The notes beneath the pieces are model-generated. The model ran no database searches. It was not told the origin of the DNA and saw only the letters and a list, made by a program, of their open reading frames with translations. DNA of 64,000 nucleotides from the NCBI GenBank assembly GCA_030710605.1, contig CP092864.1, positions 139,423,418 through 139,487,417 of the forward strand, written 5' to 3'. Origin of the DNA: Cordylochernes scorpioides. Its lineage: Eukaryota. The translations under genes and the position numbers were made by a program. Of this stretch, positions 11,988 through 51,936 are shown piece by piece (the stretch's first letter is position 1; the number at the start of each line of letters is the position of its first letter).

Positions 11988-12272
11988 TATTTTTTGCTTA
12001 TCCCTAGTACATGTGGTACAGGCCATGATAATTATGGGGGGTAGAAATTGGCGACTACTTTTACTGTAAGTGCACCACATGTTTACACATGTGAAAAGCA
12101 GTTCGACTTTGCACTTATAAATGTGCCAGAGCCTCGTTTGGTTACTTGCACTCACTGGTGGGATTGGACTTTTGCAAGAATCGGGGGCCTTTGGCGCATT
12201 TTTGTTTTCTAATAAAAAAAAAAGTGCCCAATGCGGGAATCAAACCCGGGTTGTAGCAGTTGAGCAGATGAA
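11988..12272 (-). mobile_element. tRNA-derived SINE copy (inverted, 5'-truncated)
   Basis: tttttgcttatccctagtacatgtggtacaggcc...gcgggaatcaaacccgggttgtagc. Confidence 0.75.
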
Positions 12273-12284
12273 ACAAATATGGTA

Positions 12285-12790
12285 CCATTCACAAACCAAA
12301 TACTGAACCAAGCTATGATGATACAACTATGGTTCCAACTGATGACAAACCAAATACTGAACCAAGTTATGATGATACAACTATGGTTCCAACTGATGAC
12401 AAACCAAATACTGAACCAAGTTATGATGATACAACTATGGTTCCAACTGATGACAAACCAAATACTGAACCAAGTTATGATGATACAACTATGGTTCCAA
12501 CTGATGACAAACCAAATACTGAACCAAGTTATGATGATACAACTATGGTTCCAACTGATGACAAACCAAATACTGAACCAAGTTATGATGATACAACTAT
12601 AGTTCCAACTGATGACAAACCAAATACTGAACCAAGCTATGATGATACAACTATAGTTCCAACTGATGACAAACCAAATACTGAACCAAGTTATGATGAT
12701 ACAACTATAGTTCCAACTGATGACAAACCAAATACTGAACCAAGTTATGATGATACAACTATAGTTCCAACTGATGACAAACCAAATACT
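12285..12790. repeat. 54-bp minisatellite x 9.3 (open in all frames)
   Basis: (atggttccaactgatgacaaaccaaatactgaaccaagttatgatgatacaact)n. ORFs 12209..12805(-), 12279..12602(+) and 12329..12814(+) are all repeat artefacts. Confidence 0.9.
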
Positions 12791-13578
12791 GTATTCAGAA
12801 GGCAATCACAGTAAGGTTAAAGTGACCTCTCATTAAGATTAGGTGAGGGTAGGAAGTAAGTTTTGATCTGTTTGCTCCAAGGAGGGGAATGTACTTTAGG
12901 GTGGGTGTTATATTCATGTAAATAATACACAATCTCTTTTGCAACATTTAGAAAGACATAGATTTTATTAAAGCTTTAAAAAAAAGACAAAAGTGGCAAG
13001 AAAAATAGACTTGCACATAGAACAACAAGTTGCATCTAGATTCAAAATGGCCAGAATTAGACATGTTTTAACTAGAGATTTTTAAAAAACCATGGAAGGA
13101 ATTTCCAGTACAATCAACATCAGAGTTAGACAAGAGGAACTACAAGGGACAGAAATTGTCCATTATTCTATCTGCAAGTTCAGCAAGTATTACTTTTCTA
13201 GAGTAAAAAAAAAAAACATCATTCAAAAATTTGAGAACACTTTGCAAAATCAGCAACCAATCCATCACAGTCCAAGCTATAGGCTAGATGGTCAGTCCTA
13301 CTAATGTATATTCCAGTTCAAGCAACAAGAATAAAATGTATATTTTTCTATTTTTAACATTTGCAAGAGATTTGTAGAAGGCACAAAAGTGTCTTAGATG
13401 TGCCAAGATGCTGGTAAAGATAGAGAACAACTGTTCCTACCCAATATATTTAGAAGTAATTAGCATTGTTCCAGGGGTTCTAACACAAATTTAACTGGTA
13501 ATTTGGCAAATAAATAAAATAAGAGGACAAATTGTGTGGGTACGTCTCTTAACACGCATTGTATCAACTAGATATATA

Positions 13579-15667: not shown

Positions 15668-15779
15668 TATAATATATGAAGAGCATCTTCTGAGTCATGC
15701 ACCTAATCACAGCAGATAAAAGCAATTTATCAGTTATGAATAGCAACAAAAATTCTTCTTGATACATCAAGTGAAACTA

Positions 15780-15850
15780 ACTACATACGCGGCAGTTTGG
15801 GCTGTTGGCTTTTGTCAGCGCGGTGCAGGTTGTACCTCCACGACCTATCA
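15780..15850 (-). repeat. Degenerate HHR-family fragment (inverted)
   Basis: rc = ggtcgtggaggtacaacctgcaccgcgctgacaaaagccaacagcccaaactgccgcgtatgtag. Confidence 0.5.
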
Positions 15851-19098: not shown

Positions 19099-19215
19099 TC
19101 AGTTACCATGTTCCGGCCGGCTCAGGAAACCCAGAGCCGTGTTGAAGAGGCTGAGAGGAGTCTTGCCATCTGTGATGAGGGTGGATTGGAGGCCCAGGCT
19201 CTGGAGGAGTTTCAC
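19099..19215 (-). CDS. MVP: MVP exon 13 (terminal; TGA at 19101..19099)
   Basis: Acceptor ttgctgcag|GTG; translates to [39 protein letters not shown] possible alternative donor CATG|GTAACT at about 19107 could lengthen the C-terminus. The plus-strand ORF 19024..19242 is the antisense shadow. Confidence 0.75.
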
Positions 19216-19439
19216 CTGCAGCAACAACGTATGTTGACTTGAGCTGACAGTATATCCCAAAAATCCACAATCATTATGTTGATATTCCTACCAAACTACA
19301 TTTGGGGAGGAAAATAGACCTATAAACAATTACAGCTAAATCTCTTTAATTCAACAGGCAGGGGTCGGTAACCTGCGGCTCGCAGCCACATGCGGCTCTT
19401 TGGATGTGAAGCTGAGTGTAGTACTCTTATAAATACTGA

Positions 19440-20045: not shown

Positions 20046-21577
20046 CTGATTTATGTAAGTACTATTTAATTTGAAATGAAGGCGATAAAAACGTGGTGAT
20101 TTTCTTTTAATGGTAAAAACACAACTTTCAGGCAAGAATGGCCTTCTTCAGGTTACAACTTGGAAATATTTTAAAACTATGGATATGAAAGATAGCCCAA
20201 TACAGTAGGTAAATAGTTCAGCTGGGGGGATTGGCGAGGTAAAACACGGAGTATTGGGGTGGGAGGTCTCTTTTTTTCGGTTAAAACTGGGCATGCAGTG
20301 CGAGACCAAAGATCCAAGGACTAGGCGCTGATACTTGTTCCTGACGCCCTTGTACTATTTAATGTTGAAAATAAAAAAAAATGTATGGCTCTTTAAAAAC
20401 TTTGAGATTTTGGAAAATGTAATTTTGCCTAAGGGAAAGGTGCTGGGAAAGGGAAAATGTAATTTTGTCTAAGGGAAAGGTGCTTCCTGTTGAATTAAAG
20501 AAGTTATATACTCTTCAATCATCTGTTATAGAAGGTACAATTCAGTGCTTCCTGTTGAATTAAAGAAGTTATATACTCTTCAATCATCTGTTATAAAAGG
20601 TACAATTTAGATTATAGATTAGAAACATAAGGTAACACGACCACATCCAAATAAATAGTGTGTGAAGTTTCAAGTAACAGTGTTCCTCCCTCATTAGGCA
20701 TAATTAATTTATTTGGATATGTAACATGCTTTGTATTTATTTATGTAAAATATTTAATTATTCTTTTTGATTTTTCTACATAGTTAGGTAGTCGGCAATA
20801 CTTTACTTTCTTTCTTTTTGTAATTTTGCATAAGTTTTGTTTATATATTATGGTTAATCTTGTAATTAAATTAAGTATTTATTTATTTAACAGTTGGGAG
20901 AGACACGCCATATCCACAATTTGGATAATTGCGTGTATATTTTAAATTATATACAATTAATACAATTGAACATTGGGAATCATTAAAATTAAACGTTCGA
21001 TGTCAATTTTTACATATAGTAATTATAAGTAGTAGCTTGAAATATGTACGGTCAACACTTTTGCCTCAAAATATACATCCTGCAGAATCTATTAAACTTG
21101 ATGTATTGGTCTTTATTGCAAGCAGCTTGTTTTGTATTAGTCAGGTAAAGTTGGTTTTCTTCCCTTAGATCAGAAGTTAATGGACAGTTTATCAGAAGGT
21201 GTTCAGGGGTTTGTTGTTCGATTCCACAAGTGCATGCAGGTGAATCAATTTTGCCAATTCTAAACAAATATGTGTTGAAGTCACCATGTCCAGTAAAAAA
21301 TTGAACGTTATAGAAGTTGGGTTGAACATAATATTAAAACATAAAGTATTGTGACTATCCCTTATTTATAAATAGGAAACATTACAGGGATACGATCTTG
21401 TTACCTTATGTTTCTAATCTATAATCCAAATTGTATGTCATCATTGTGTGAAAAGGGCTGATATCAAAGTGGAATAAGAAAGATAATTTAGATGAAGGAT
21501 TGGGAGACTCCAACTGAAGATAGAGTATTCAGCACATATGGCTTGTGCAACAGTTTGATGTAAAAATGGAAACAGAC

Positions 21578-21766
21578 CTGGAGCTCAGGACCAGCGGAGG
21601 CAATGGAGCGGATAGTATCCTGGCCAATGGCATCCACCATGGACTTGAACTTGTTGGCATCAATGGCCGCCAGCTCCTTGGACTTGGAGACTTCCAGTTC
21701 ATTCTGTTTGAGCTCGTAGGCCAGCTCAGCCTGCCTGGCCCGGGTGACCAGCTCCAGCTCATTATC
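21578..21766 (-). CDS. MVP: MVP exon 12
   Basis: Acceptor tgtgacag|GAT; rc translated by hand to DNELELVTRARQAELAYELKQNELEVSKSKELAAIDANKFKSMVDAIGQDTIRSIASAGPELQ. Donor CAG|GTCTGT. The plus-strand ORF 21545..21853 is its antisense shadow. Confidence 0.8.
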
Positions 21767-22918
21767 CTGTCACACATATCATCTAGGATTAAAACCTACG
21801 TTTTTTTTTTAATCAGGAAGATGGAGATCTTTAAACACGCATACATTTATTAAGACAAACTGGTCTTATAGAAGATTTTTCTTGGAGATTACAAGATGTG
21901 GAAACTGAGAACAAGAAATATATACAGAACAACAAAAAAAAAAAGGTTTTTGTACACATGATATATTACATCTATATATATATTAAAGATTTATAGACAG
22001 AATAGTTAATAACACACATTATAAATTATGGGCACTATAGAAGCTTATTGATTCTTAAGAGATCTTTAAGCAGTTACAGAGAGATGAAATCTTTATATTT
22101 CCATAACATGGGGCCAATGGCTTTCAAGATAATAGACTTTCATCAAGGTCCAAAGAATAATGAAAATGTCTTGAGAGTTGTTTACGTCACACCTAGAGAG
22201 GGGGGGCAAAGTCTGACTGTGGATAGCCAACCAACGGCAGCAGCTTACCCATCATGGAGACTTATGAACACTTAGGTAAGGGTGAGAGCTGCTGTTTTGA
22301 AAGCTAGTGGCCTATTTTATCATAATGCAGCAACTAATCACTTTCATCATAAAACAGCTCGAGGAGCATGAACTCATGGAATTCGTGTAATCTTTGCACA
22401 AGGGGATAAGAAACAACAACAACAACACTAATCTCTGTGTGTGTGGCTGTTTTAAGATCTCCTAATTTTAAATAGAACCAGCTAGCTATTCTAGCCAAAT
22501 ATATTTCATATTTTGGCACAAAAGGGAACAAAGGAAAGATACTAATACTATAAAAAATTTGAAAAGAGCAACTGATAAAATGGGATGTATCCATTTAGAA
22601 GCTTTCAGCAGTAATTATTGTCTAGATCATGAAAATTTCCAAAGGTTTCATTAATTAAGGCTTATTGTATGCATATTGTTGACACCTACACTGTAGGTTC
22701 TCTCCAATCACTGAGTGAGGATGGTATGCATTTTCTTGTATCTATAATCCAAATTGTGCTTTATCAAATCTAAACTACAAATAACATTTTCTTATCAAGC
22801 AACTGAAAGTTGCTGATGGCTTGCGCCATCTATCGGAATAAATATCAACTATTCTCGTTGATTTTTAATTATTCCAGAATTGGCCAAATACCCATTCTTG
22901 ATTAACCAAGAAAAGCTA

Positions 22919-22960
22919 ACCACGGACGCGTTTCGGGCTGTTGGCCCTCATCAGCGTGGT
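22919..22960 (-). ncRNA. Minimal type I hammerhead ribozyme motif, inverted copy (same strand as MVP)
   Basis: Plus strand reads ACCACGGACGCGTTTCGGGCTGTTGGCCCTCATCAGCGTGGT, the exact reverse complement of the HHR at 23210-23251. Confidence 0.75.
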
Positions 22961-23209
22961 GCAAGCTGTACCTCAACGACCAAAATGATAGATGGCGCAA
23001 GCCATCAGCAACTTTCAGTTGCTTGATAAGAAGAAGCCTTTTTCTTAATTTATGCACCTTATCCCAGTACAATATTACATTTGTACTATTTTTTCACATT
23101 GTGTAGCGTTCTCACGCAATTCTGGCCTTAACTACCCGTTTCATGATTTTTCAGGATGCCTTAAGGACCAATTTTTTTTTTTTTTTTTGGTCGTTGAGGT
23201 ACAGCTTGC

Positions 23210-23251
23210 ACCACGCTGATGAGGGCCAACAGCCCGAAACGCGTCCGTGGT
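23210..23251 (+). ncRNA. Minimal type I hammerhead ribozyme motif (intact core)
   Basis: ACCACG-CUGAUGA-GGGC(CAACA)GCCC-GAAA-CGCG-UC|CGUGGU. Helix I is 6 bp (ACCACG/CGUGGU). Core C3-A9 is complete. Helix II is 4 GC pairs with a 5-nt loop. G12A13A14, A15.1/U16.1 and the GUC cleavage triplet are present. The palindromic ACGCGU helix III is typical of dimer-acting minimal HHRs. Predicted cleavage after C23245. Confidence 0.8.
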
Positions 23252-23550
23252 TAGCTTTTCTTGATTAATCAAGAATGGGTATTTGGCCAATTCTGGAATA
23301 ATTAAAAATCAACGAGAATAGTTGATATTTATTCCGATAGATGGCGCAAGCCATCAGCAACTTTCAAGTTGCTTGATAAGAAGAAGCCTTTTTCTTAATT
23401 TATGCACCTTATCCCAGTACAATATTACATTTGTACTATTTTTTCACATTGTGTAGCGTTCTCACGCAATTCTGGCCTTAACTACCCGTTTCATGATTTT
23501 TCAGGATGCCTTAAGGACCAATTTTTTTTGGTCGTTGAGGTACAGCTTGC

Positions 23551-23592
23551 ACCACGCTGATGAGGGCCAACAGCCCGAAACGCGTCCGTGGT
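23551..23592 (+). ncRNA. Minimal type I hammerhead ribozyme motif (second direct copy)
   Basis: Identical sequence to the 23210-23251 copy; predicted cleavage after 23586, 341 nt downstream of the first site. Confidence 0.8.
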
Positions 23593-23920
23593 TAGCTTTT
23601 CTTGATTAATCAAGAATGGGTATTTGGCCAATTCTGGAATAATTAAAAATCAACGAGAATAGTTGATATTTATTCCGATAGATGGCGCAAGCCATCAGCA
23701 ACTTTCAGTTGCTTGATAAGAAGAAGCCTTTTTCTTAATTTATGCACCTTATCCCAGTACAATATTACATTTGTACTATTTTTTACAAATAACATGATGA
23801 AACCAAACAAAAATTTGATATTTAGAGATCAGAGTGTGAATTAGAAAACAAAGGTAACATTAATAAAAAAAAATTAGGCAATTGCATGTCTGTCATTATT
23901 GAGAAGGGTAAATCACTTGC

Positions 23921-24164
23921 CTCTTTGATGGTGTTGGCCTCGGCTTTGAGCTTGGCCTGCTGGACAGCGGTCTCCCCCTCAATCTTGCAGGACTCGGCCC
24001 GCGCCAGAGCCTCAGCCTTGGATTGCCCACAGGCTTCCACAGTCTGGGACTGGGACTGAAGGTCCAGGAGCTCGAGGCGGGACCTCTCTGCCTTCACTTC
24101 GTCCTCAATCTTCTGTCTGGCTAGCCGGCCCTTGGCCTCTTGCTCCTGTCTCTGGGCCTCGTGT
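23921..24164 (-). CDS. MVP: MVP exon 11 (followed by GC-AG intron)
   Basis: Acceptor ggtgcag|A completes AGA (R); translates to HEAQRQEQEAKGRLARQKIEDEVKAERSRLELLDLQSQSQTVEACGQSKAEALARAESCKIEGETAVQQAKLKAEANTIKE. Donor AAAGAG|GCAAGT is a perfect GC-donor consensus; no in-phase GT alternative found. ORF 23822..24277(-). Confidence 0.75.
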
Positions 24165-24611: not shown

Positions 24612-24930
24612 CAGTACTCCATGAGAGGATACTCGCGCTAGAGGACACCTCTCTATAAAGGACAATTTTCATTTGCAAAATCCCAATTTTTACTATTTAG
24701 CAACAATTCAGTAAGAGGACACCTCTCCCTAAAGGACAATTTTCATTTGCAAAATCCCAATTTTTACTATTTAGCAACAATTCAGTAAGAGGACACCTCT
24801 CCCTAAAGGACAATTTTCATTTGCAAAATCCCAATTTTTACTATTTAGCAACTCTCCAGTAAGAGGACACCTCTCCCTAAAGGACACTTTTGTTCTACAA
24901 TTAGGTGTCCTTTACAGGGAGGTTCTACTG
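24612..24930 (+). mobile_element. MITE family A copy with 3x internal 62-bp duplication (MVP intron 10)
   Basis: ggacaattttcatttgcaaaatcccaatttttactatttagcaacaattcagtaagaggacacctctccctaaa x3, then the normal 3' TIR. Confidence 0.75.
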
Positions 24931-27651: not shown

Positions 27652-28230
27652 TCTTCTTTCTTATCTCCACTCAATCACACTAAGGTATCAAGCTTGTCTT
27701 CTTCTTCTTATTTCTTATCTCCACTCAATCACACTAAGGTATCAAGCTTGTCTTCTTCTTCTTCTTTCTTATCTCCACTCAATCACACTAAGGTATCAAG
27801 CTTGTCTTCTTCTTCTTCTTTCTTATCTCCACTCAATCACACTAAGGTATCAAGCTTGTCTTCTTCTTCTTTCTTATCTCCACTCAATCACACTAAGGTA
27901 TCAAGCTTGTCTTCTTCTTCTTCTTTCTTATCTCCACTCAATCACACTAAGGTATCAAGCTTGTCTTCTTCTTCTTCTTTCTTATCTCCACTCAATCACA
28001 CTAAGGTATCAAGCTTGTCTTCTTCTTCTTCTTTCTTATCTCCACTCAATCACACTAAAGTATCAAGCTTGTCTTCTTCTTCTTCTTTCTTATCTCCACT
28101 CAATCACACTAAGGTATCAAGCTTGTCTTCTTCTTCTTCTTTCTTATCTCCACTCAATCACACTAAGGTATCAAGCTTGTCTTCTTCTTCTTTCTTATCT
28201 CCACACAATCACACTAAGGTATCAAGCTTG
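27652..28230 (-). repeat. ~60-bp tandem repeat x about 9.5 derived from a LINE 3' end (CTT-rich tail)
   Basis: (cttcttcttctttcttatctccactcaatcacactaaggtatcaagcttgt)n, contiguous with LINE 3' sequence at 28230-28440. Confidence 0.8.
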
Positions 28231-28621
28231 TAAAGCTTGAGATTTTTGATGGTGTCTGCCGGGGAAGAGTAGAGCTCATCAATGGATGAGTCAATACAGT
28301 CAATAATATGTCTTGGGGTTGCAGGCTGAGAATTGCACTTAGTACATAGTGGGAAAACCTTGCAAAGTCGGCCTGCCACTGAGTAGTGCTCCCAGTCTTA
28401 ATGACAAAGGCAGACACATTTTACTTTACCCAATCATGAAGAGGGTCTTTAACCCAAAACCATATTCCCTAGGTGGGCACTTTACAATTTGCCAAAGCTG
28501 CGGCTTTGTTTCCGACCAGAGTCTGCTAGTTTGCAGAGATGGCGCTTAGTTTTAGGGTTTATTTTCAACAAGATAATTTTATAGATCCCCAGGGCAAGAA
28601 ATATAAGGAGAGTGGAGTGAC

Positions 28622-29199: not shown

Positions 29200-29261
29200 T
29201 GCATCGGCCGGGAATCGAACCCGGGGCGCCCGCGTGGCAGGCGAGCATTCTACCACTGAAC
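29200..29261 (-). pseudogene. tRNA-Gly-like copy (5' acceptor strand missing) plus a shorter fragment at 29120-29159; same conserved flanking repeat (28960-29120)
   Basis: tgcatcggccgggaatcgaacccggggcgcccgcgtggcaggcgagcattctaccactgaac, preceded by a poly-A/T run and ctagccgaatgacccgggcaacgcccgggg... Confidence 0.5.
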
Positions 29262-30649: not shown

Positions 30650-31068
30650 CTGTCAACAACCCCCATTTATTGAGTTAGCTATATATATGTAGATGGAAAA
30701 TTTGCCGGGAGGAAATTAATCCATAGAAGCAATGGGCGCCTCTCCCGTCGTTTGACGTTTATTTTGACGGGAGAGGCGCCCATTGCTTCTATATATATAT
30801 ATGTGTGTTCATTAATTAATAACACAAGGTAATATGACCAAATCTAAATAAATAAATAGTGTGTGACATTTTGGTAAAAGCATTGTTACCAACTTCAGAA
30901 AAAAGTACTGAATGAGAAATTACGAACAACAGTTACCGAAATGTTACACTCTATTATTTTATTTGAATTAGGTCTTACTTTCTTGTAGCTATAATCCAAA
31001 TTGTGCCTTATCACTAGAAAATTCAGTTCCTCTGTCTGTAGCACTCAGGGAGGGCCACCAACACCCAC

Positions 31069-31880: not shown

Positions 31881-32145
31881 AAGGTTAAAGGTAACAACAC
31901 TGTTACCAAAATTTCACTCACTATTAATTTATTTGGATTAGGTCTTATTTTTTATTGTATCTATAATCCAAATTGTGCTTTATCATATTTACCAATATGT
32001 AGTTGAAATAGGAAAAAAAAAAGATGTAATTTCCCCAAATATTTTACAAAACAACGAGCAATCCAGGGTTAAGTTTCTTTTAGAGAAATAAAAAAAGTAT
32101 TTAAAAAAACACGTAACCCTGTTAGGGATGAGAGAACATGTATTA

Positions 32146-33589: not shown

Positions 33590-33790
33590 AAATACAAGGT
33601 AATAAGACCAAATCCAAATAAATAAATAGTGTGTGACGTTTCGGTAACAGCGTTGTTACCATCTTCAGACAAAAGTACTGAATGAGAAATTTAACCACAG
33701 CCTGTTTTTAAATAGTTCCTGTTATCACACACTATTTATTTATTTGGATTTGGTCTTATTACCTTGTGTTTATAATCTATAATCCAAATT
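33590..33790. mobile_element. Palindromic hairpin MITE family B (GGCACAATTTGGATTATAG...), representative copy
   Basis: aaggtaataagaccaaatccaaataaataaatagtgtgtgacgtttcggtaacagcgttgttacc...gtgttatcacacactatttatttatttggatttggtcttattaccttgtgtttataatctataatccaaattgtgcc. At least 15 further copies, including 2090-2300, 7975-8085, 10490-10660, 17935-18075, 30820-30990, 47975-48360, 48640-49040, 50975-51300 and 52110-52440. Confidence 0.7.
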
Positions 33791-35216
33791 GTGCCTTATC
33801 AATTAAAAGAAAATATGTAAATATATTATTTAAAATTGAAGATACTTTGGCCAGTAAATCTTTTTATTATCTTGATGTTTCGACAAAAATCTTTTGTTCT
33901 CATCAGGAGTAAACAAAAATTGATACATTTGGCAAGGAGTTAAAAATTAGGCATCCTCTATCTTTATGATATATTATTTAAGAAAAGTTCATTTATTTTA
34001 TGATTTGAATATATGTAAATTTAATTATTGTAGAAAAGGTTATTTGCATACTTCATGTGCTGACTGCCAACAAATTTGCAGCTGGATGAACACACTGATG
34101 GTTGATCAGGGTCTCTCCCTCGGTTTATCTAGATTCTACAAGGCCGCAGTCAATGTCCGTTGGAGAATGATGGATTCGCCGAATGTCATGGTTTGCTCGG
34201 AGGAGGAAAGCGAAGATTGAATGCGGCTGATTCCACACTAGCCCTCTCAATGATATCTTAACCTTGACATATTCTAAACATTGGTACTTTAATTTAAATA
34301 TTTAATCATGTATGGTTCCTTTTGCTCTGTATGTTTATTTTTTATATATATGGTTATATTTCTTTTTGTTTGGTTTTTCTTTCTTCTCTCTTTCCTTATT
34401 ACTTCTTATATTCTAGTTTTTACTTTTGAAATATCTTCCTTTCCTAAATCCCGTAGAGGGGAATCATGTATAGGGCTGGATGCCCTAATAAAAAAGGCTT
34501 ATGTGTGTGTGTGTATACTTCATGTGTATATAGTTGTTAGTTAAGTGTATTTTGAGGATAGTGATGAAGACATGATGAGGCTCAGATTTGTAGGCCTATT
34601 TGTTCTTAATTCTTTAATAAATGTTTTGTGAAGACTTCTTCTTTCTTATTCCTACTCAATCATATCAGGGTATCAAGCTTGTAGAGCTTGTTGATGGTAT
34701 CTGCTGGGGATGAGTAGAGTTCATCAATGAATCTTCTTCTTCTTCTTTCTTATCTCCACTCAATCATATTAGGGTATCAAGTTGTGACCCTTGATGGTGT
34801 CTGTTTGACAACCATCATGACTGGGTGAAGTAGAATGTGTCTGCCTTTGTCATTAAGACTGGGAGCACTACTCAGTGGCAGGCCGACTTAGCTCCAAAAG
34901 AAATGGCCGCCTCTGACATGAGGAACAGATGCCATGTGCAGTCGCTCCTAACATGGAGTACAAACACTGCTCATCCTGTATCCCTGGATCAGGAGCCCTT
35001 ACAGGGTACTATCAGCCGGGCCAGCTGAGCCCAGGTTTTTTAGCGAGCTTGTTACTGCTCCCCCTCCTTCTTTTTCATCTGGGCTTGGGACCGGCAAAGA
35101 CGGAGTAAAATGAATTAGTCAATACAGTCATATGATGTGTTGTGAAATAGAGAGTGAAGGGAAGTCTTCTTGAACTTATATTAAAAAGAATTCCCTTCAC
35201 TACAACATAAACTTAC

Positions 35217-35707: not shown

Positions 35708-36067
35708 TATAGGAGAACTGTAAGTGAAACTGGAAAATCTTGGCCATAAATGTGATTTGGTCTAATGGATGTGCAGATATTGGGGCCTTAAGAACACCTA
35801 TTTGATCTGTATTAGAGCAGCTAGGTTTCTTCATCATGATAAACATCATACCTATGGTGTAACTATACTATGTGATTGATAACAAATCATTCTGCCATGT
35901 ATTGCCAGGTGTTGGAAGTCTTAGTCGGTGATGGCTGCAACTTTAGAATGAGATAGCTTGCTGGGTGACAGATTGGAAGAAAGTCTTTAATTCACCTCTC
36001 AATTCTTTAAATCATTGTATTGTTGGTGGTGATTTATAAAATTTAAAAATGGCTAACCTTCTAAATG

Positions 36068-36300
36068 ACCAGTTTTTTTGTTGTTGAGGTACAGCTTGCA
36101 ACATGCTGACAAGGGCCAACAGCCCGAAACGTGTATGTGGTTAGCTTTACTTGATTAATCAAGAATGGGCATTTGTCAAATTCTGGAATAATTAAAAATC
36201 AACAAATAGTTGATATTTCAGTTGCATGATAAGAAGATGCCTTTTTATTAATTTATTCACCTTATCCCAGTACAATTTGATGTTTGTACTATTTGTTCAC
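36068..36300 (+). repeat. Degenerate dispersed copy of the HHR-bearing repeat (core mutated to CUGACAA, G8A)
   Basis: gttgttgaggtacagcttgcaacatgctgacaagggccaacagcccgaaacgtgtatgtggttagc plus shared downstream unit sequence (cttgattaatcaagaatggg...ccttatcccagtacaat). Confidence 0.7.
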
Positions 36301-37384
36301 CTAATTCTTTTTTTGAAGTAAACGAAAAATTGCGCTACAAATAATAAAAATAAAACTACAACCTTTCGCAATGAGTTTCTTTTATTATGATATACGCGAG
36401 CTTTCGGGCTGGAGCCGCCCTTCTATGGGCAATATTTCAGCATACCATGAATACCGGCCACAAATTTAATTTAGATAGTCCAACTTGCCACTATAGTAAC
36501 ATAACCACCAAATCTGAAAGATTAATCCTTGAATTGCTGATTTCCAAACAACACAATAGCATTAATCGTAGAATAGATATCCCAGAACAATTTTGTCATA
36601 TTCCATACCACAAAAATCAGATTTCTCGCTTATCCAATCTATAGTCTAAAACTTAACTTTATTAAAATATTGAAATTTAAGGTTAATTTACTTCCAATTG
36701 TTAAACATAGTAAAATAGTAATAATTTATGTAGATTTAATACTTTTCTTTCTGATAATTTATGTAAAATTTGTAACAAATTAATGCATATAACTGTCTCT
36801 CAAAAATCAAATAGTTCATTTTTGCCTGTAGAAGGGCGGCTCCAGCCCGAAAGTTCGCGTATCTACTTATATAATTGCCTTATTCTGTCTGTGTGAAGTT
36901 CACTGTGTGAAGTATGTGGATATGGATGGAATGGATAAAATAAAAAAAGTGTCAAGGGATGGGAATCGAACCCACGACCTTCCGCTTACCAGGCAGATGC
37001 CATGACCACTAGGCCACATGACCACAATTTATAATTGTAACAAATAGTATTTGAATCAAAACATTCAATCGGGTAAAACACGGGTGTTGCCCGGGTCATT
37101 CGGCTAGTATCATAATAAAAGAAATTCATTGCGAAAGATTCTAGTTTTATTTTTATAATTCTTTTTTGTTTAAGGTGGAAAAATATCGGGCTTCTGAGGC
37201 TAAATTTCTTTTAAAACATTTTTCGGACACAAAAGCTAGGGATTTATGAATTTAAATGCTTTGAAAGAAACTTGAAGCCTGATAATTTCATCTCAATATT
37301 TGATACAAGGCATTATTTTAATGAACTGTAAATTTTTTTTTTTTTGTTCTTTTATTTCAGAGAATAAACAACTTTTTGTATTGT

Positions 37385-40967: not shown

Positions 40968-41539
40968 CTGATACACAACATATACTCCCATTCATCTATT
41001 CACTTCCTTATTTATAATATTGTCATGCATTAAGTCTAAATGAAATATACTCATGGACAAAACTTATGAAAGTTATACCTTTTAGCATGTATATCAGGAA
41101 TTAGACAATAACTCTGAAAGATATTACAGGAACCTTTAGTGAATACACACGAGATAACCGGGGGGGAAGAAGTCTGACCTCACCTCCCTTGACCCTTGGA
41201 ATATTCGACTAAATTCTGGTCTGTTTCCAAGGCGACTAACGTGGCAATGACATCCATTTTCCAATGAAGAGCAAAATGCATGGAGACATCTAAGGTTTTT
41301 CATTGGACATAACAACAACGAGATAACCAAGTGTGAACAAAGTTGTCTCTGTCTCCTTCTAAGAACACTCTTGAAAATTTACTCTCAAAATCACTCTAGA
41401 AATAATCATTTTCAAGGCATTTCCAGAGAAAAATATGCCTATCAAAATATAGTAAAACTTGTCTCTAAAGGACAACACCTAGTTGCAGAGTGTAGTTTAG
41501 ATAGAAGTGTCCAGAGAGTTACAAATTAGTAAATATTTT

Positions 41540-41650
41540 TGGTCACAGAGGTACAGTCTGCACCACGCTGAAGAAAGCGTTCCACTAGATGGCGCTCTGC
41601 CATCTAAAAGTTCATGTGAACGTGGTCAGGAAATGCCTTTTTTTATTTAT
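41540..41650 (+). repeat. Internally deleted copy of the HHR-family repeat, abutting the mariner-like element
   Basis: ggtcacagaggtacagtctgcaccacgctgaagaaagcg...ctagatggcgctct...gtggtcaggaaatgcc. Confidence 0.5.
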
Positions 41651-42985
41651 ATACATAGTGTGATCAATAATTTCCAGGAATGCTAAATATTTAAAGAAAT
41701 ACAAAAGTATAATAAAGTTTTATTTAAAATTTCTCAAAATAATCACCGTCACTATCTATACACTTGTTCCATCTTTTTTCCAGATATCAAAACACCTCTA
41801 AAAATCCTCATCTTTCAGGCTTTTCAAAATATTCTTCGTATTCTCCTTTATTTCAGGTATTGAGTCAAATCGACATCCTTTTAAGACTTTTTTAATTTTA
41901 GGGTAAAGGAAAAAGTCGTTGGGAGCAAGTCAGGAGAATAGGGTGGCTGGGGTAGTAAAGCAATTCCATGTTTAGCCAAATAGAGTGGTACAGTGACGGC
42001 CGTATGTGGCCGTGCGTTGTCATGATGCAAGAGCCAATTTTTCTGATGCCATTTTTTGGGTCGTTTCTGATACACAGCCTCCCTTAAATGTCGCAATACA
42101 TCAAAATAGTAATGTTGATTAATGATCTGACCCTCGGGCTCGAATTCATAGTGTACCAATCCCTTTACATCAAAGAAAGTGATAAGAAAACACTTAAACT
42201 TCGATTTGATCATCCTTGATTTCTTGAATCTTGGTTCTCCAGGCTCTAGCCACTGGCTTGATTGCCTCTTAGTCTCGGGATCATATCCGTACACCCATGT
42301 TTCATTTCCCGTGATAATATTTTTGAGCCAATGGGGATCAGAATTAAACATTTTGACTATGTTTTTGCATGTTTCTTTGCGATCCTCTTTCTGCTCATTC
42401 GTTAAGAGATGTGGGACAAATTTAGCTGGGGATCGTTTAAGATGCAGATCATTCTTTATGAGGGTTTGGTATGTTCCAAAAGAGATATTCAAGTCTTCTG
42501 ATAGCTCTCTGATATTTATTCTTGGGGTTTCTTTGATGGATAACTTGATTTTGAGTGCATTTTCGGGGTTTCTTATTGATAAAGGTCTGCCAGTATGTAG
42601 ATCATCCTTGACACTTTTTCAACCAGCTTTAAATCGTGCAAACCATTCAAATTTCCTCGATTGTGATAGGGCATCTTCTTTAAAAGTCTGCTTCAACATT
42701 TGAAATGATTCAGAAGCTGTTTTCCCTAATTTAAAGCAAAACTCTATGCAGACTCGCTGTTTTTCAATACAGTCTATACTGAAGTTAGAAAATGTTCTGA
42801 TATACTCGAGATTATAAATTCGAAAAAAAAACATGAGCGCGTGCGTCTGTGTGTTCATTTTTTTTTTCTACGTATTGATAAATGTTTTATCTATAAGGTC
42901 CTCATAAAATTATTTCATTATTTTGAATAGTTTACATGATCCAGTCTCATATTTGGAAATTATTGATCACACGTTGTATATATGG
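41650..42985 (-). mobile_element. Mariner-like element (Tc1/mariner superfamily) with frameshifted transposase; in MVP intron 3
   Basis: ORF 42619..42858(-) matches the mariner N-terminus (...CIEFCFKLGKTASESFQMLKQTFKEDALSQSRKFEWFARFKAG). ORF 41881..42492(-) contains WLLHHDNARPHTA and LLPQPPYSPDL. The C-terminal ...GDYFE lies in another frame. Imperfect TIRs are acatagtgtgatcaataatttcc (41653-41675) and rc of 42956-42978, with TA flanks. Confidence 0.85.
41881..42492 (-). pseudogene. Mariner transposase catalytic-domain fragment (DD34D-type motif HHDNARPH)
   Basis: The 203-aa ORF aligns to the mariner transposase core; the N- and C-terminal parts are in different frames. Confidence 0.8.
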
Positions 42986-43738: not shown

Positions 43739-43837
43739 TACATTTAAAAAAAAAATTCTTATTTTTCAGATGTTTAGCATAATTATGCAAAATGTTCTTG
43801 ATTTCTCAGGAAAACTCAAAGACCAACTTTTTGGTTA

Positions 43838-44035
43838 TGAGGTACAGTCTGGCATCACGCTGAGGAGGGCCAACAGCCCAGAAAGGGAATGTGGTTGGCT
43901 TTTCTTGATTTATCAAAAAAATGAGTTAGCTAAATATTATAAAATAAACTTTAAAAAAATGTTTAATTTATTTTTGTTACACTAGATGGCGCTCTTCAAT
44001 CTCATGTGAGTGGTCAGGATATGCCTTTCTTATTT
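43838..44035 (+). repeat. Degenerate dispersed copy of the HHR-bearing repeat (CUGAGGA; GAAAC lost)
   Basis: ggttatgaggtacagtctggcatcacgctgaggagggccaacagcccagaaaggg...cactagatggcgctc...gtggtcagg. Confidence 0.65.
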
Positions 44036-44745
44036 TTAATATATTAGCGTATAAATGTCTTTCAGTAGCAGAAATATGTGGGGAATGATACAACAATTCC
44101 TTAGTGAGACCAAGTACTCTGTTCTGAAGCTTGACAACCACACTGTCACTATTACAATTCTTATCTTAATTTTGGTATTGTTACCTTTGACCCATTCTAT
44201 TGATAGCTCATAGAGAGACCACATCTGTTTCTTGAAACATGCCAAAAATGTTTTTTTTTCTAACCCATCAGTTGATTGCTTAAACTAACTTGCACAGACC
44301 ATGCTTTCCTAGTATATTGATGACTTGCTGGGGGATTTTGTAGATATCTTGTTTGTTTAGGCCACAGCACTGCAGGATGTGTTCTGCGGATGCCTCACAG
44401 CCAGACATTTTGTGCAGTGTAAAAAAAAAGTGTAAGGCACAATTTAGATTTTAGATTATCAACACCAGGTGATATGACCAAATCCAAATAAATAATTTAT
44501 TTATTTGGATTTGGTCTTATTGTGTTTAGGTAAAAAAAAAGGCCCAAAATGTAGCTTGACACCTGCAGCTCCAGAACACATTTTGGCTTGCATTAGATGC
44601 ATTGAACAGGACCTTTGGGAGAGGCCGCTGCTTATCATAAAACAGCTCGAGGAGCATAAACTTATGGAATTCATGTAATCTTTACACAAGGGGATAAGAA
44701 ACAACAACATGTCAAAAAAGAGTGAATTGTGATGAAGAAACTTAC

Positions 44746-44903
44746 ACCTCAGTGTCACTGGTGACGTAGGTCTTGGGTCCTTTCTCCACCCGGGTGACAT
44801 TGGTGGAGTGGTCGAGGATGTGGAGGAAGTGGTAGGGAGGGATTCTGTGGACTGTGTTCTCCATCCCGCTGCCTCCTCGGTGCTCCTTGCTTCTGTTACT
44901 CAT
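44746..44903 (-). CDS. MVP: MVP exon 1 (start codon at 44903..44901; alternative in-frame ATG at 44864..44862), ends phase 2
   Basis: rc reads ATGAGTAAC...GGGATGGAGAACACAGTCCACAGAATCCCTCCCTACCACTTC... = M S N R S K E H R G G S G M E N T V H R I P P Y H F L H I L D H S T N V T R V E K G P K T Y V T S D T E. In-frame TAA lies upstream of the first ATG. Donor GAGGT|GTAAGT at 44745. Confidence 0.8.
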
Positions 44904-45194
44904 CCTTCTGCTGCTGTCACCACACCCAGGTTAAACACAGAGGTTGTCACAGGTAATGACAGCTCTTATGATAATACATCCTAGTTGAGGAAAGCAATCT
45001 CATTAGTGGGCCATTTACTGATTGGCTGCCTCTCCTCTAAACACTTTGGTAAAACTCTACATTCATGGACAAAACTAGAGGAAGTGGAAAGTCTAATATC
45101 GCTAGTCCTCTATTTTTTTAAGGGGACAGAAGTAATTTTGTACACAATTGGCTATCTTGTGTGTCTTCAATAAAGGTTACTGTGTATCAAATAG

Positions 45195-46650: not shown

Positions 46651-46857
46651 TACCTTACAACAACCAAATTGGCTAGTCCCTTGGGTAGGGGGCAGTTTTA
46701 AAGTGAGTAGACTGTATAGCCATACTTCTCTCATAACAACAACATTTGGGGCCAAGTTTGTATGTCATTATAACCACAGTTGGAACAATAGGAAAGTAAA
46801 TGGCCTTAAATACCTATTTCTTTATTACTCAGGAAGTCTCAAGGACCAGTTTTTTGG

Positions 46858-46965
46858 TCGTTGAGGTACAATCTGGAACCACACTGATGGAGGCCAACAG
46901 CCCAAAAGGTGTATGTGGCTAGCTTTTCATGATTTATCAAAAAAACTGGGTTGGCTAAATATTAC
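46858..46965 (+). repeat. Degenerate dispersed copy of the HHR-bearing repeat
   Basis: ggtcgttgaggtacaatctggaaccacactgatggaggccaacagcccaaaaggtgtatgtggctagc. Confidence 0.6.
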
Positions 46966-49374: not shown

Positions 49375-49707
49375 GTCTTATTTTCATGTATCTATAATCT
49401 ATAATCCAAATTGTGCTTTATTATCTATGGTAGTAATAAGATTGCTCTGTTGTTACAATAAATACTTGATAGAAAAGTAAAGAAAGTCCCATATGAAGCA
49501 AAATCCAAATGACCTAAAATCCAAAAATAAAATATATTTCCTACTTATATAAAACTAGCCGAATGACCCGGGCAACTGCCCGGGTTTTACCCGATTAAAT
49601 GCTTTTATTCAAATACTATTCGTTACAATTATAAATTGGCGCCGTGGATGTCATTCTTGTATAATATATAAATGAGTTTTGAAAATTGTAAAAAAAAAAA
49701 AAAAAAA

Positions 49708-49777
49708 TGCATCGGCCGGGAATCGAACCCGGGCCGCCACGTGGCAGGCAAGCATTCTACCACTGAACCACCGATGG
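49708..49777 (-). pseudogene. tRNA-Gly(GCC)-like sequence followed by a 19-nt oligo-T; probable tRNA pseudogene/SINE head embedded in a conserved ~220-bp repeat
   Basis: rc = cCATCGGTGGTTCAGTGGTAGAATGCTTGCCTGCCACGTGGCGGCCCGGGTTCGATTCCCGGCCGATGCA. Near-identical to canonical tRNA-Gly-GCC, with a compensatory pair in the acceptor stem. G1 is replaced by C and the anticodon stem is weakened. Confidence 0.6.
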
Positions 49778-50880: not shown

Positions 50881-51936
50881 TTTTACTTTTCCAGCCAGTC
50901 CCCATTGTTGACTGTATAATGCAAGGAGATCCTATATGAATGGATTCACTTCATCAACTTGCACTGTTAATGTTAAAGCACAATTTGGATTATAGATTTT
51001 AATAAAAGAAAACAAGACCTAATCCAAATAATTTATTAGTGTGTGACGTTTCGGCAACAACATTGTCACCATCATCAGACATTTATTCTTTTGTCTGATG
51101 ATGGTGACAATGTTGTTGCCGAAACTTCACACACTAATAAATTATTTGGATTAGGTCTTGTTTTCTTTTATTGCACAGTTAAATACAAGAAAATAAGAAC
51201 TAATCCAAATAAATTAATAGTATTTGACATTTCGATAACAATGCTGTTCCTGAAGTGTCACACACTATTAATTTATTTGGATAAGGTCTTATTTTCTTGT
51301 ATTTAACTGTATAAGATGTTGAAGTACTATGTACCAAGTGCAATTCTCAGCCTGCAACCCCAAGACATATTATTGACTGTATTGACTCATCCATTGATGA
51401 GTTCTACTCTTCCCCGGCAGACACCATCAAAAATCTCAAGCTTTACAAGCTTGATACCTTAGTGTGATTGAGTGGAGATAAGAAAGAAGAAGAAAAAGAA
51501 GATGTTGAAGTGAATATTGGTAACAACACTGTTACCTAAACGTCACACACTATTAATTTATTCGAATTAGGTCTTATGGTGGTGTTGGTCAATATGGTAT
51601 TATTGGTCATGTTAGCACCATACATAGATCAGCCATCTTTGAATATCATTTTACAAATCTTATGCAATTCTCTCTTATAATGCCAGACCACACTATTTGA
51701 TTATCAAAACAATCTTTCCTTGGTCAACCATTCTTCAATAGGTCCAGCCTGGTCAAAATACTTCATTTAAATAGCAATCATGGAGTAAAGTCATTTCTGA
51801 GGTCATGGAACACCATTTTACTCTGCTCATGAACAAATCTTTTTACTTCTTTGTGTTTATCAATATAGTCTCCATTAAATCTTTTCCAAAGTAGCTACAA
51901 GAATTATTATTCACTGAATCACTTTTCCAAACTAAT

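Follow-up and report, generated by a model that had tools for sequence, protein, structure and literature searches.

Intron 11 of the major vault protein gene (MVP), in a 64,000-nt stretch of the Cordylochernes scorpioides genome (assembly GCA_030710605.1, contig CP092864.1, positions 139,423,418 to 139,487,417; hereafter the window, with positions counted from its first letter), contains a 996-bp repeat block (22788-23783) that carries three hammerhead ribozymes. We conclude with good confidence that this block is one recent insertion of a non-autonomous metazoan retrozyme of the class without long terminal repeats (non-LTR), that its head-to-head junction is a scar of the type left by Penelope-like elements (PLEs), and that the one hammerhead lying in the sense orientation of MVP is a by-product, most likely inert or close to it. 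On its own, this is one further transposable-element insertion in an intron. The value of the locus lies in offering a clean, young and fully bounded retrozyme insertion, in which the target-site duplication (TSD), the phases of the truncated 5' ends and the inverted 5' copy can be read directly.

Anatomy and class of the insertion

A 12-mer search of the window found TACAAATAACAT at two places only, 22776-22787 and 23784-23795, identical at 12/12 positions and exactly at both ends of the block. Because this sequence is found only at the outer edges, we interpret 22788-23783 as a single insertion flanked by a 12-bp TSD; one base between the left TSD and the element is without assignment (22788), with none on the right. 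Most of the block is a direct partial tandem on the plus strand (22987-23783), antisense to MVP, which comprises 2.3 units of 341 nt and runs from unit position 91 to about 198, counting unit positions from the ribozyme cleavage site. A tandem scan delimited the same array as 22987-23784, with a period of 341, 2.3 copies and 97% matches. To its left lies an inverted, 5'-truncated partial unit on the minus strand (22789-22985; 197 nt, unit positions 281-341 plus 1-137), which is 99% identical to the direct units and has its 3' end outward to the left and its 5' end at the junction. The initial annotation had placed an inverted copy of ~195 bp at 22786-22982, directly abutting the direct units; the copy is present, shifted by 3 nt, and the head-to-head junction is real, with one base (22986) that by direct reading fits neither orientation standing between the two. 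The block is thereby bounded by two outward-facing 3' ends, with the truncated 5' ends joined at 22986.

The copies are set apart by a single substitution, which lies outside the hammerhead, by a 1-nt indel and by a T tract of unequal length, which by direct reading holds 17 T at 23172-23188 (plus strand) and 8 T at 23522-23529; the inverted copy ends 4 T into this variable tract. Since the TSD is perfect and the copies are 99-100% identical, these sequence comparisons indicate that the insertion is young. A paralogous empty site was sought in the window, and no sequence spanning the junction was found.

At the junction the two orientations are not in phase: the inverted copy begins at unit position 281, and the direct array begins at 91. 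For this reason the long inverted-repeat arms lie 199 nt or 540 nt apart. They pair 22804-22985 with 23185-23366 (182 nt) and 22789-22985 with 23526-23722 (197 nt), each at 99% complementarity; the closest pair of arms, 22789-22834 and 22987-23032, is only 46 nt long, with a spacer of 152 nt. What had been described as a ~190-bp perfect palindrome is instead an interrupted inverted repeat. The accompanying proposal of a cruciform or long double-stranded RNA holds in its second half, an RNA hairpin being plausible; a DNA cruciform was rejected as unlikely, given a spacer of at least 152-199 nt between the arms.

Tandem and inverted structures are error-prone in assemblies (PMC8557442), and the unequal T tracts could be read in the same direction, as signs of a local satellite arising from unequal crossing-over or of an assembly artefact (a palindromic chimera). 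We consider such an origin scarcely credible. Against it, a perfect 12-bp TSD marks the exact outer limits of the block, and related copies are dispersed across the window. In addition, the two orientations join out of phase, which a simple read-level palindrome would not produce, and the flanks are unique sequence that runs into MVP exons.

Retrozymes are recognised by AT-rich units of 150-450 bp, a type I hammerhead, the lack of an open reading frame (ORF), a TSD of >4 bp and a self-paired RNA (PMC7229834). In the block, units with a 341-nt period each bear a type I hammerhead, two of them in one orientation (plus), at least two being expected. The GC content is low (39%), and there is no LTR, primer-binding site (PBS) or polypurine tract (PPT), the only terminal direct repeats being the units themselves. 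Stop-free stretches reach at most 50 amino acids, with no ATG-, GTG- or TTG-initiated ORF of 110 amino acids or more. The 12-bp TSD exceeds the 4 bp of LTR retrozymes, and the predicted 341-nt monomer RNA (23246-23586) has a minimum free energy of -115.7 kcal/mol, with z = -8.3 for the plus strand and z = -4.75 for the minus strand.

The unit also belongs to a dispersed family, as repeat comparison within the window recovered five further, diverged copies. Three lie on the plus strand in MVP introns and are antisense to the gene (36061-36300, a 5'-truncated monomer; 41536-41574; 43795-43919), and the others are at 15756-15845 (minus) and 46801-46943 (plus). All have mutated cores (e.g. CTGACAA, CTGAGGA) and are older than the array in intron 11. 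The copy at 36061-36300 and the direct array end at unit positions within ~4 nt of each other, which hints at a preferred 3' terminus for the family.

Among described systems, the closest likeness is to the metazoan non-LTR retrozymes (Cervera & de la Peña 2020, PMC7229834), above all those of the axolotl and newt 'satellite 2' type (Rtz_331 / HHR_Amex1). These share AT-rich units of ~330-350 nt with a type I hammerhead in each, a helix III reduced to a single pair with a palindromic tetraloop, the lack of an ORF, LTR, PBS or PPT, a TSD of >4 bp and a strongly self-paired monomer RNA. The window element differs from published retrozymes in its unit sequence, for which the metagenome scan returned no match beyond the hammerhead core, in its very short array (2.3 units) and in its inverted partial copy.

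The left flank of the insertion ends in a motif of ~30 nt, ATCTATAATCCAAATTGTGCTTTATCAA (22730-22772), which recurs in both orientations at no fewer than 14 other window sites, for example 30979-31013, 31950-31991, 33775-33802, 49397-49421 and 50971-50997. It probably represents the conserved terminus of a short, abundant repeat, with the retrozyme inserted ~15 bp from one copy.

The hammerhead fold and its relatives

The 25-nt core CTGATGAGGGCCAACAGCCCGAAAC occurs at 22930-22954 (minus), 23216-23240 (plus) and 23557-23581 (plus), and shuffled sequences gave 0 occurrences. All three copies possess the same intact type I hammerhead core, CUGAUGA...GAAA...GUC, with C3 U4 G5 A6 N7 G8 A9, G12 A13 A14, the A15.1-U16.1 pair and an NUH triplet. 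Including the extended helix I, the MVP-sense hammerhead spans 22914-22967 on the minus strand; its minimal motif occupies 22919-22960, precisely where the initial annotation had reported an intact ribozyme. The hammerheads of direct units 1 (23203-23256) and 2 (23544-23597) both lie on the plus strand, antisense to MVP, again as that annotation had stated. Cleavage of the minus copy is predicted after GUC, between 22925 and 22924, and that of the plus copies at 23245/23246 and 23586/23587, exactly 341 nt apart, which delimits the monomer RNA.

At gathering thresholds, an Rfam search of the window returned three tRNA-like matches and no ribozyme. The best ribozyme model, HH9, was reached in E-value mode only, with 26.1-26.5 bits where the gathering score is 52 (E 5e-4 to 7e-4): 26.1 bits and E = 6.8e-4 for the sense copy, and 26.5 bits and E = 5.1e-4 for unit 1, the hammerhead of unit 2 being placed by E-value mode together with the core search. 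It is the lack of helix III that keeps the score below the gathering value.

In helix II, GGGC pairs with GCCC around a CAACA loop. The open-ended helix I consists of ACCACG/CGUGGU and a distal AGCU/AGCU, with an asymmetric internal loop (UGC/U) between them. In place of a stable helix III hairpin there is only A15.1-U16.1, closing a CGCG loop. In folding of the monomer, forcing this pair is unfavourable (-11.7 kcal/mol, vs -17.6 kcal/mol without it), and at minimum energy the core's GAUG is mispaired with CGUC. Two molecules can form a 6-bp helix III through the palindrome ACGCGU, and the resulting double hammerhead is computed at -42.9 kcal/mol, vs a dimer optimum of -43.4 kcal/mol. With helix III cut down to one pair under a palindromic tetraloop, cleavage would be expected in the double-hammerhead mode.

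A single metagenome scan, queried with the 25-nt core, gave 8 loci, on eukaryotic contigs. These share with the window unit the hammerhead core only, and belong to a different element whose cores are 119 nt apart beside (TG)n tracts. Their helix II and loop 2 are identical to those of the window, the loop-1 UGC is the same, and they have a full 6-bp helix III. Read by hand, their helix I is ACUGCA/UGCAGU, with both sides differing from the window's at 3/6 proximal pairs. These compensatory changes give direct comparative support for the hammerhead fold, helices I and II both being base-paired and the covariation falling in helix I; since the loci have only the core in common with the window, what is gained from them is this helix I covariation and no orthologues. 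A MAFFT alignment misaligned the 3' half of the hammerhead because helix III differs in length between the window and metagenome hammerheads. Comparison of these sequences suggests that helix III collapsed in the lineage of the window element. The literature and one supplement were also searched for the core sequence, and nothing relevant was found.

On five of the metagenome contigs (L002, L003, L004, L006 and L008), the hammerheads occur in pairs, and the second member, 119 nt away, is degenerate (GAAA to AAAA) and lies near (TG)n microsatellites. L003 further has 243-nt inverted arms (1-243 and 876-1118) flanking the microsatellite.

Origin of the head-to-head junction

In published PLE insertions, a partial tandem is bordered at its 5' end by an inverted, 5'-truncated copy, with the 3' ends turned outward (PMC8557442), and the block has each of these features. 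In vitro, a purified PLE protein cuts and extends the two strands of its target, which R2 and L1 do not (PMC11167929), and retrozymes have been proposed to be non-autonomous PLE derivatives (PMC7229834; bioRxiv 10.64898/2026.07.22.740005). Because the PLE enzyme works on both strands and retrozymes may derive from PLEs, two target-primed cDNAs offer the simplest account of the junction.

We posit that the plus strand of tandem copies would be transcribed and cut by paired hammerheads into 341-nt monomers, which a host ligase would circularise and a reverse transcriptase (RT) supplied in trans would copy into multi-unit cDNA at a new site. There, a double-strand cut with a stagger equal to the 12-bp duplication would allow reverse transcription to be primed on both target strands. 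From a multimeric or circular retrozyme RNA as template, one cDNA would yield the 2.3-unit direct array and the other the 197-nt inverted piece, and their incomplete 5' ends would be joined at 22986, leaving both 3' ends outward. We infer the transcription, cleavage and circularisation of the retrozyme from its family, and likewise infer the mobilising enzyme and the link from dual-strand priming to the inverted copy.

The likeness to PLEs (PMC8557442; PMC11167929; Cervera & de la Peña 2014) extends to the partial tandem, the abutting inverted 5' copy and the presence of a hammerhead in the repeated part. The window element differs from them in having no RT/GIY-YIG ORF, no 30-40-bp tail and no target microsatellite, and its hammerhead, compared with the minimal PLE hammerheads, retains the loop 1/loop 2 elements and a 6-bp helix I.

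Several observations sit poorly with a PLE origin. The 30-40-bp 'tail', which PLEs often, though not always, carry at one end (PMC8557442), is not present at the ends of the insertion. Neither an autonomous PLE (RT/GIY-YIG ORF) nor an ORF of a long interspersed nuclear element (LINE) occurs within the window. The outward 3' ends fall at different unit positions, 137 and ~198, such that there is no single initiation site. Finally, LINE twin priming would yield a similar picture.

The same retrozyme insertion could accordingly owe its inverted part to a LINE RT, through twin priming or template switching, or to a later local inversion or fold-back. Twin priming by L1 is known to leave an inverted 5' piece and a direct 3' piece within one TSD of 7-20 bp, the same joining of segments as is seen here. 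The missing PLE ORF and tail also favour this account, and LINEs have been left open as possible mobilisers of retrozymes (PMC7229834). We nevertheless judge it unlikely, if far from negligible. Neither outward end has a poly(A) or microsatellite tail, and, in contrast to L1, the element has no poly(A) or LINE sequence, a tandem multi-unit template and a ribozyme. A hammerhead, tandem organisation and an inverted 5' copy together form the pattern described for PLEs (PMC8557442), and other hammerhead elements in the window share the head-to-head layout. A later inversion would require two extra breakpoints, yet the TSD is perfect and the arms are 99% identical.

The scar adds a small new piece of structural support for PLE mobilisation of animal retrozymes. 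Until now, the case for this proposal (PMC7229834; bioRxiv 10.64898/2026.07.22.740005) has relied on common hammerheads, tandem organisation, co-occurrence and the sequence similarity of PLE LTR-like repeats (pLTRs). The support is new in that a term search of the two retrozyme papers returned no mention of inverted copies as a retrozyme feature.

The window also contains a second family of hammerheads, minimal and PLE-type (GAAACGUC), in which helix II has 7 bp and helix III lacks a loop; they lie at 33620-33760, 51040-51125, ~51210-51290 and ~51520-51570. At 51040-51125, two of them stand head-to-head ~16 nt apart within longer inverted arms, and 33620-33760 is a head-to-head pair with arms ~60 nt apart.

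The MVP transcript and its surroundings

MVP is coded on the minus strand, its GC-rich stop-free stretches running from HRIPPYHFLHILD... at 44745-44930 to the stretch at 19102-19287. The host intron (21767-23920, minus strand, 2154 nt) was delimited by direct reading and from its flanking exons. The upstream coding exon (23921-24164, minus) is equivalent to rat MVP residues 674-753 (E = 1.7e-18), and the downstream one (21578-21766, minus) reads DNELELVTRARQ...AGPELQ. With slashes marking the exon boundaries, the donor is GAG/GCAAGT, apparently of the GC-AG type (GC, not GT, at 23920 minus), and the acceptor gacag/GAT. The insertion starts only 137 nt downstream of the donor and makes up 46% of the intron. 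The number 11 comes from counting coding exons within the window, the intron separating the 11th from the 12th; the rat MVP match and this count bear out the earlier assignment of gene, strand and intron. We considered a micro-exon hidden in the intron and rejected it: none is needed because joining the two neighbouring exons keeps the reading frame, and the resulting peptide aligns to rat MVP gap-free. A protein search with the exon peptide retrieved exon-sized fragments only, with identities of at most 73%.

The initial annotation had suggested that a sense intronic ribozyme could cleave the nascent MVP transcript. Our analysis lends this no support, on grounds of helix III, the lone sense copy, its sequestration, published reports on splicing and the youth of the insertion. 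Since the head-to-head junction is read as an integration scar, the sense hammerhead would be a by-product of it, and the evidence points against appreciable activity. Only one sense copy exists in the MVP pre-mRNA, and transcription of the minus strand produces the antisense units before it. In the full-region minimum-energy fold (-561 kcal/mol), every base of the sense hammerhead is paired with an antisense unit in a continuous duplex of ~197 bp, and in minimum-energy folds of nascent transcripts ending just past the ribozyme it is likewise fully paired with an antisense unit. Axolotl retrozymes with a one-pair helix III cleaved efficiently as dimers, whereas monomers reached only 6% in one hour (PMC7229834); for such hammerheads, dependence of cleavage on dimers is also attributed to Forster et al. 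1988 in PMC6155905. According to PMC2995048, which cites Dye et al. 2006 and work of the Bentley laboratory, a slow hammerhead in an intron leaves splicing intact, and only a fast ribozyme blocked it.

In two distant relatives, the position of the intron is kept (1.36 kb and 0.19 kb) with no unit and no hammerhead in it. Both are too distant to date the insertion. The conservation that marks domesticated intronic hammerheads of the HH9/HH10 type was not seen. From these models and comparisons, the sense hammerhead most likely has little or no activity in the pre-mRNA, and we infer an absence of effect on MVP.

Several points qualify this reading. Nearest-neighbour folding is blind to hammerhead tertiary structure and to co-transcriptional kinetics. 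Newt hammerheads with an internally looped helix I extension can cleave as monomers (PMC6155905), and the window hammerhead has a newt-like extension of this sort. A nascent or functional intronic ribozyme that cuts the nascent MVP pre-mRNA and affects MVP expression would also be in keeping with the intact core and GUC site on the transcribed strand, and with the conserved sense intronic hammerheads of the amniote genes RECK, CTCL and DTNB (PMC6155905). All three older relics within MVP introns are antisense (3/3), which is compatible with selection against sense copies, at n=3. This reading is nonetheless improbable, given that the one-pair helix III with its CGCG loop disfavours the monomer fold and favours the dimer, that the lone sense copy is predicted to be sequestered in a 197-bp duplex whose complement is transcribed first, and that comparable monomers are slow; slow intronic cleavage is reported not to prevent splicing (PMC2995048), and the insertion is young and missing from the same intron of the two relatives. 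A slightly slimmer chance still is given to activity of the sense hammerhead in vivo that lowers or modulates MVP expression from the insertion allele; the ribozyme would then cut either on its own, by virtue of the looped extension of helix I, or by pairing in trans into a double hammerhead with abundant retrozyme RNA made elsewhere in the genome.

The amniote intronic hammerheads (Rfam HH9 RF02275 / HH10; RECK, CTCL, DTNB) are likewise type I and lie in sense in an intron of a protein-coding gene. In contrast to them, the window copy scores 26 vs 52 bits, belongs to a young, TSD-flanked insertion and stands beside perfectly complementary antisense copies. Were the sense copy to cleave MVP pre-mRNA after all, the locus would model the first step towards the intronic ribozymes that became fixed in amniote genes.

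In place of ribozyme cleavage, the main consequence of the insertion for MVP pre-mRNA is most likely an intronic RNA duplex of ~197 bp, as judged from the predicted folds. A stronger version holds that the hairpin is itself the relevant product, a duplex of 182-197 bp formed from either strand and edited or diced into small RNAs directed against the retrozyme family. Inverted transposon copies commonly give rise to endogenous small RNAs, and the continuous duplex dominates the modelled fold of the MVP-sense transcript. We think this version distinctly unlikely, less so than intronic cleavage and a little more so than LINE-mediated insertion, as the hairpin appears to be an incidental outcome of insertion rather than an evolved function.

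Other repeats lie in and around the gene. The next MVP intron upstream holds a tandem 74-nt repeat of 3.4 copies (24640-24891), a 65-nt repeat occurs in two copies at 20480-20607, and the tandem arrays at 12209-12814 and 27694-28233 have long repetitive ORFs open on both strands. A 203-amino-acid ORF (41881-42492, minus) with the mariner/Tc1-type transposase motifs HHDNARPHTA and PYSPDL marks a DNA-transposon relic within an MVP intron. The tRNA-like sequences that reach the Rfam tRNA threshold, at 36950-37022, 49708-49777 and 29208-29261 (all minus), are probably tRNA-derived short interspersed nuclear elements, not tRNA genes. The peptide GFDSRIGHFF recurs in ORF translations near 18.7, 49.1 and 12.2 kb, and may mark further tRNA-like copies.

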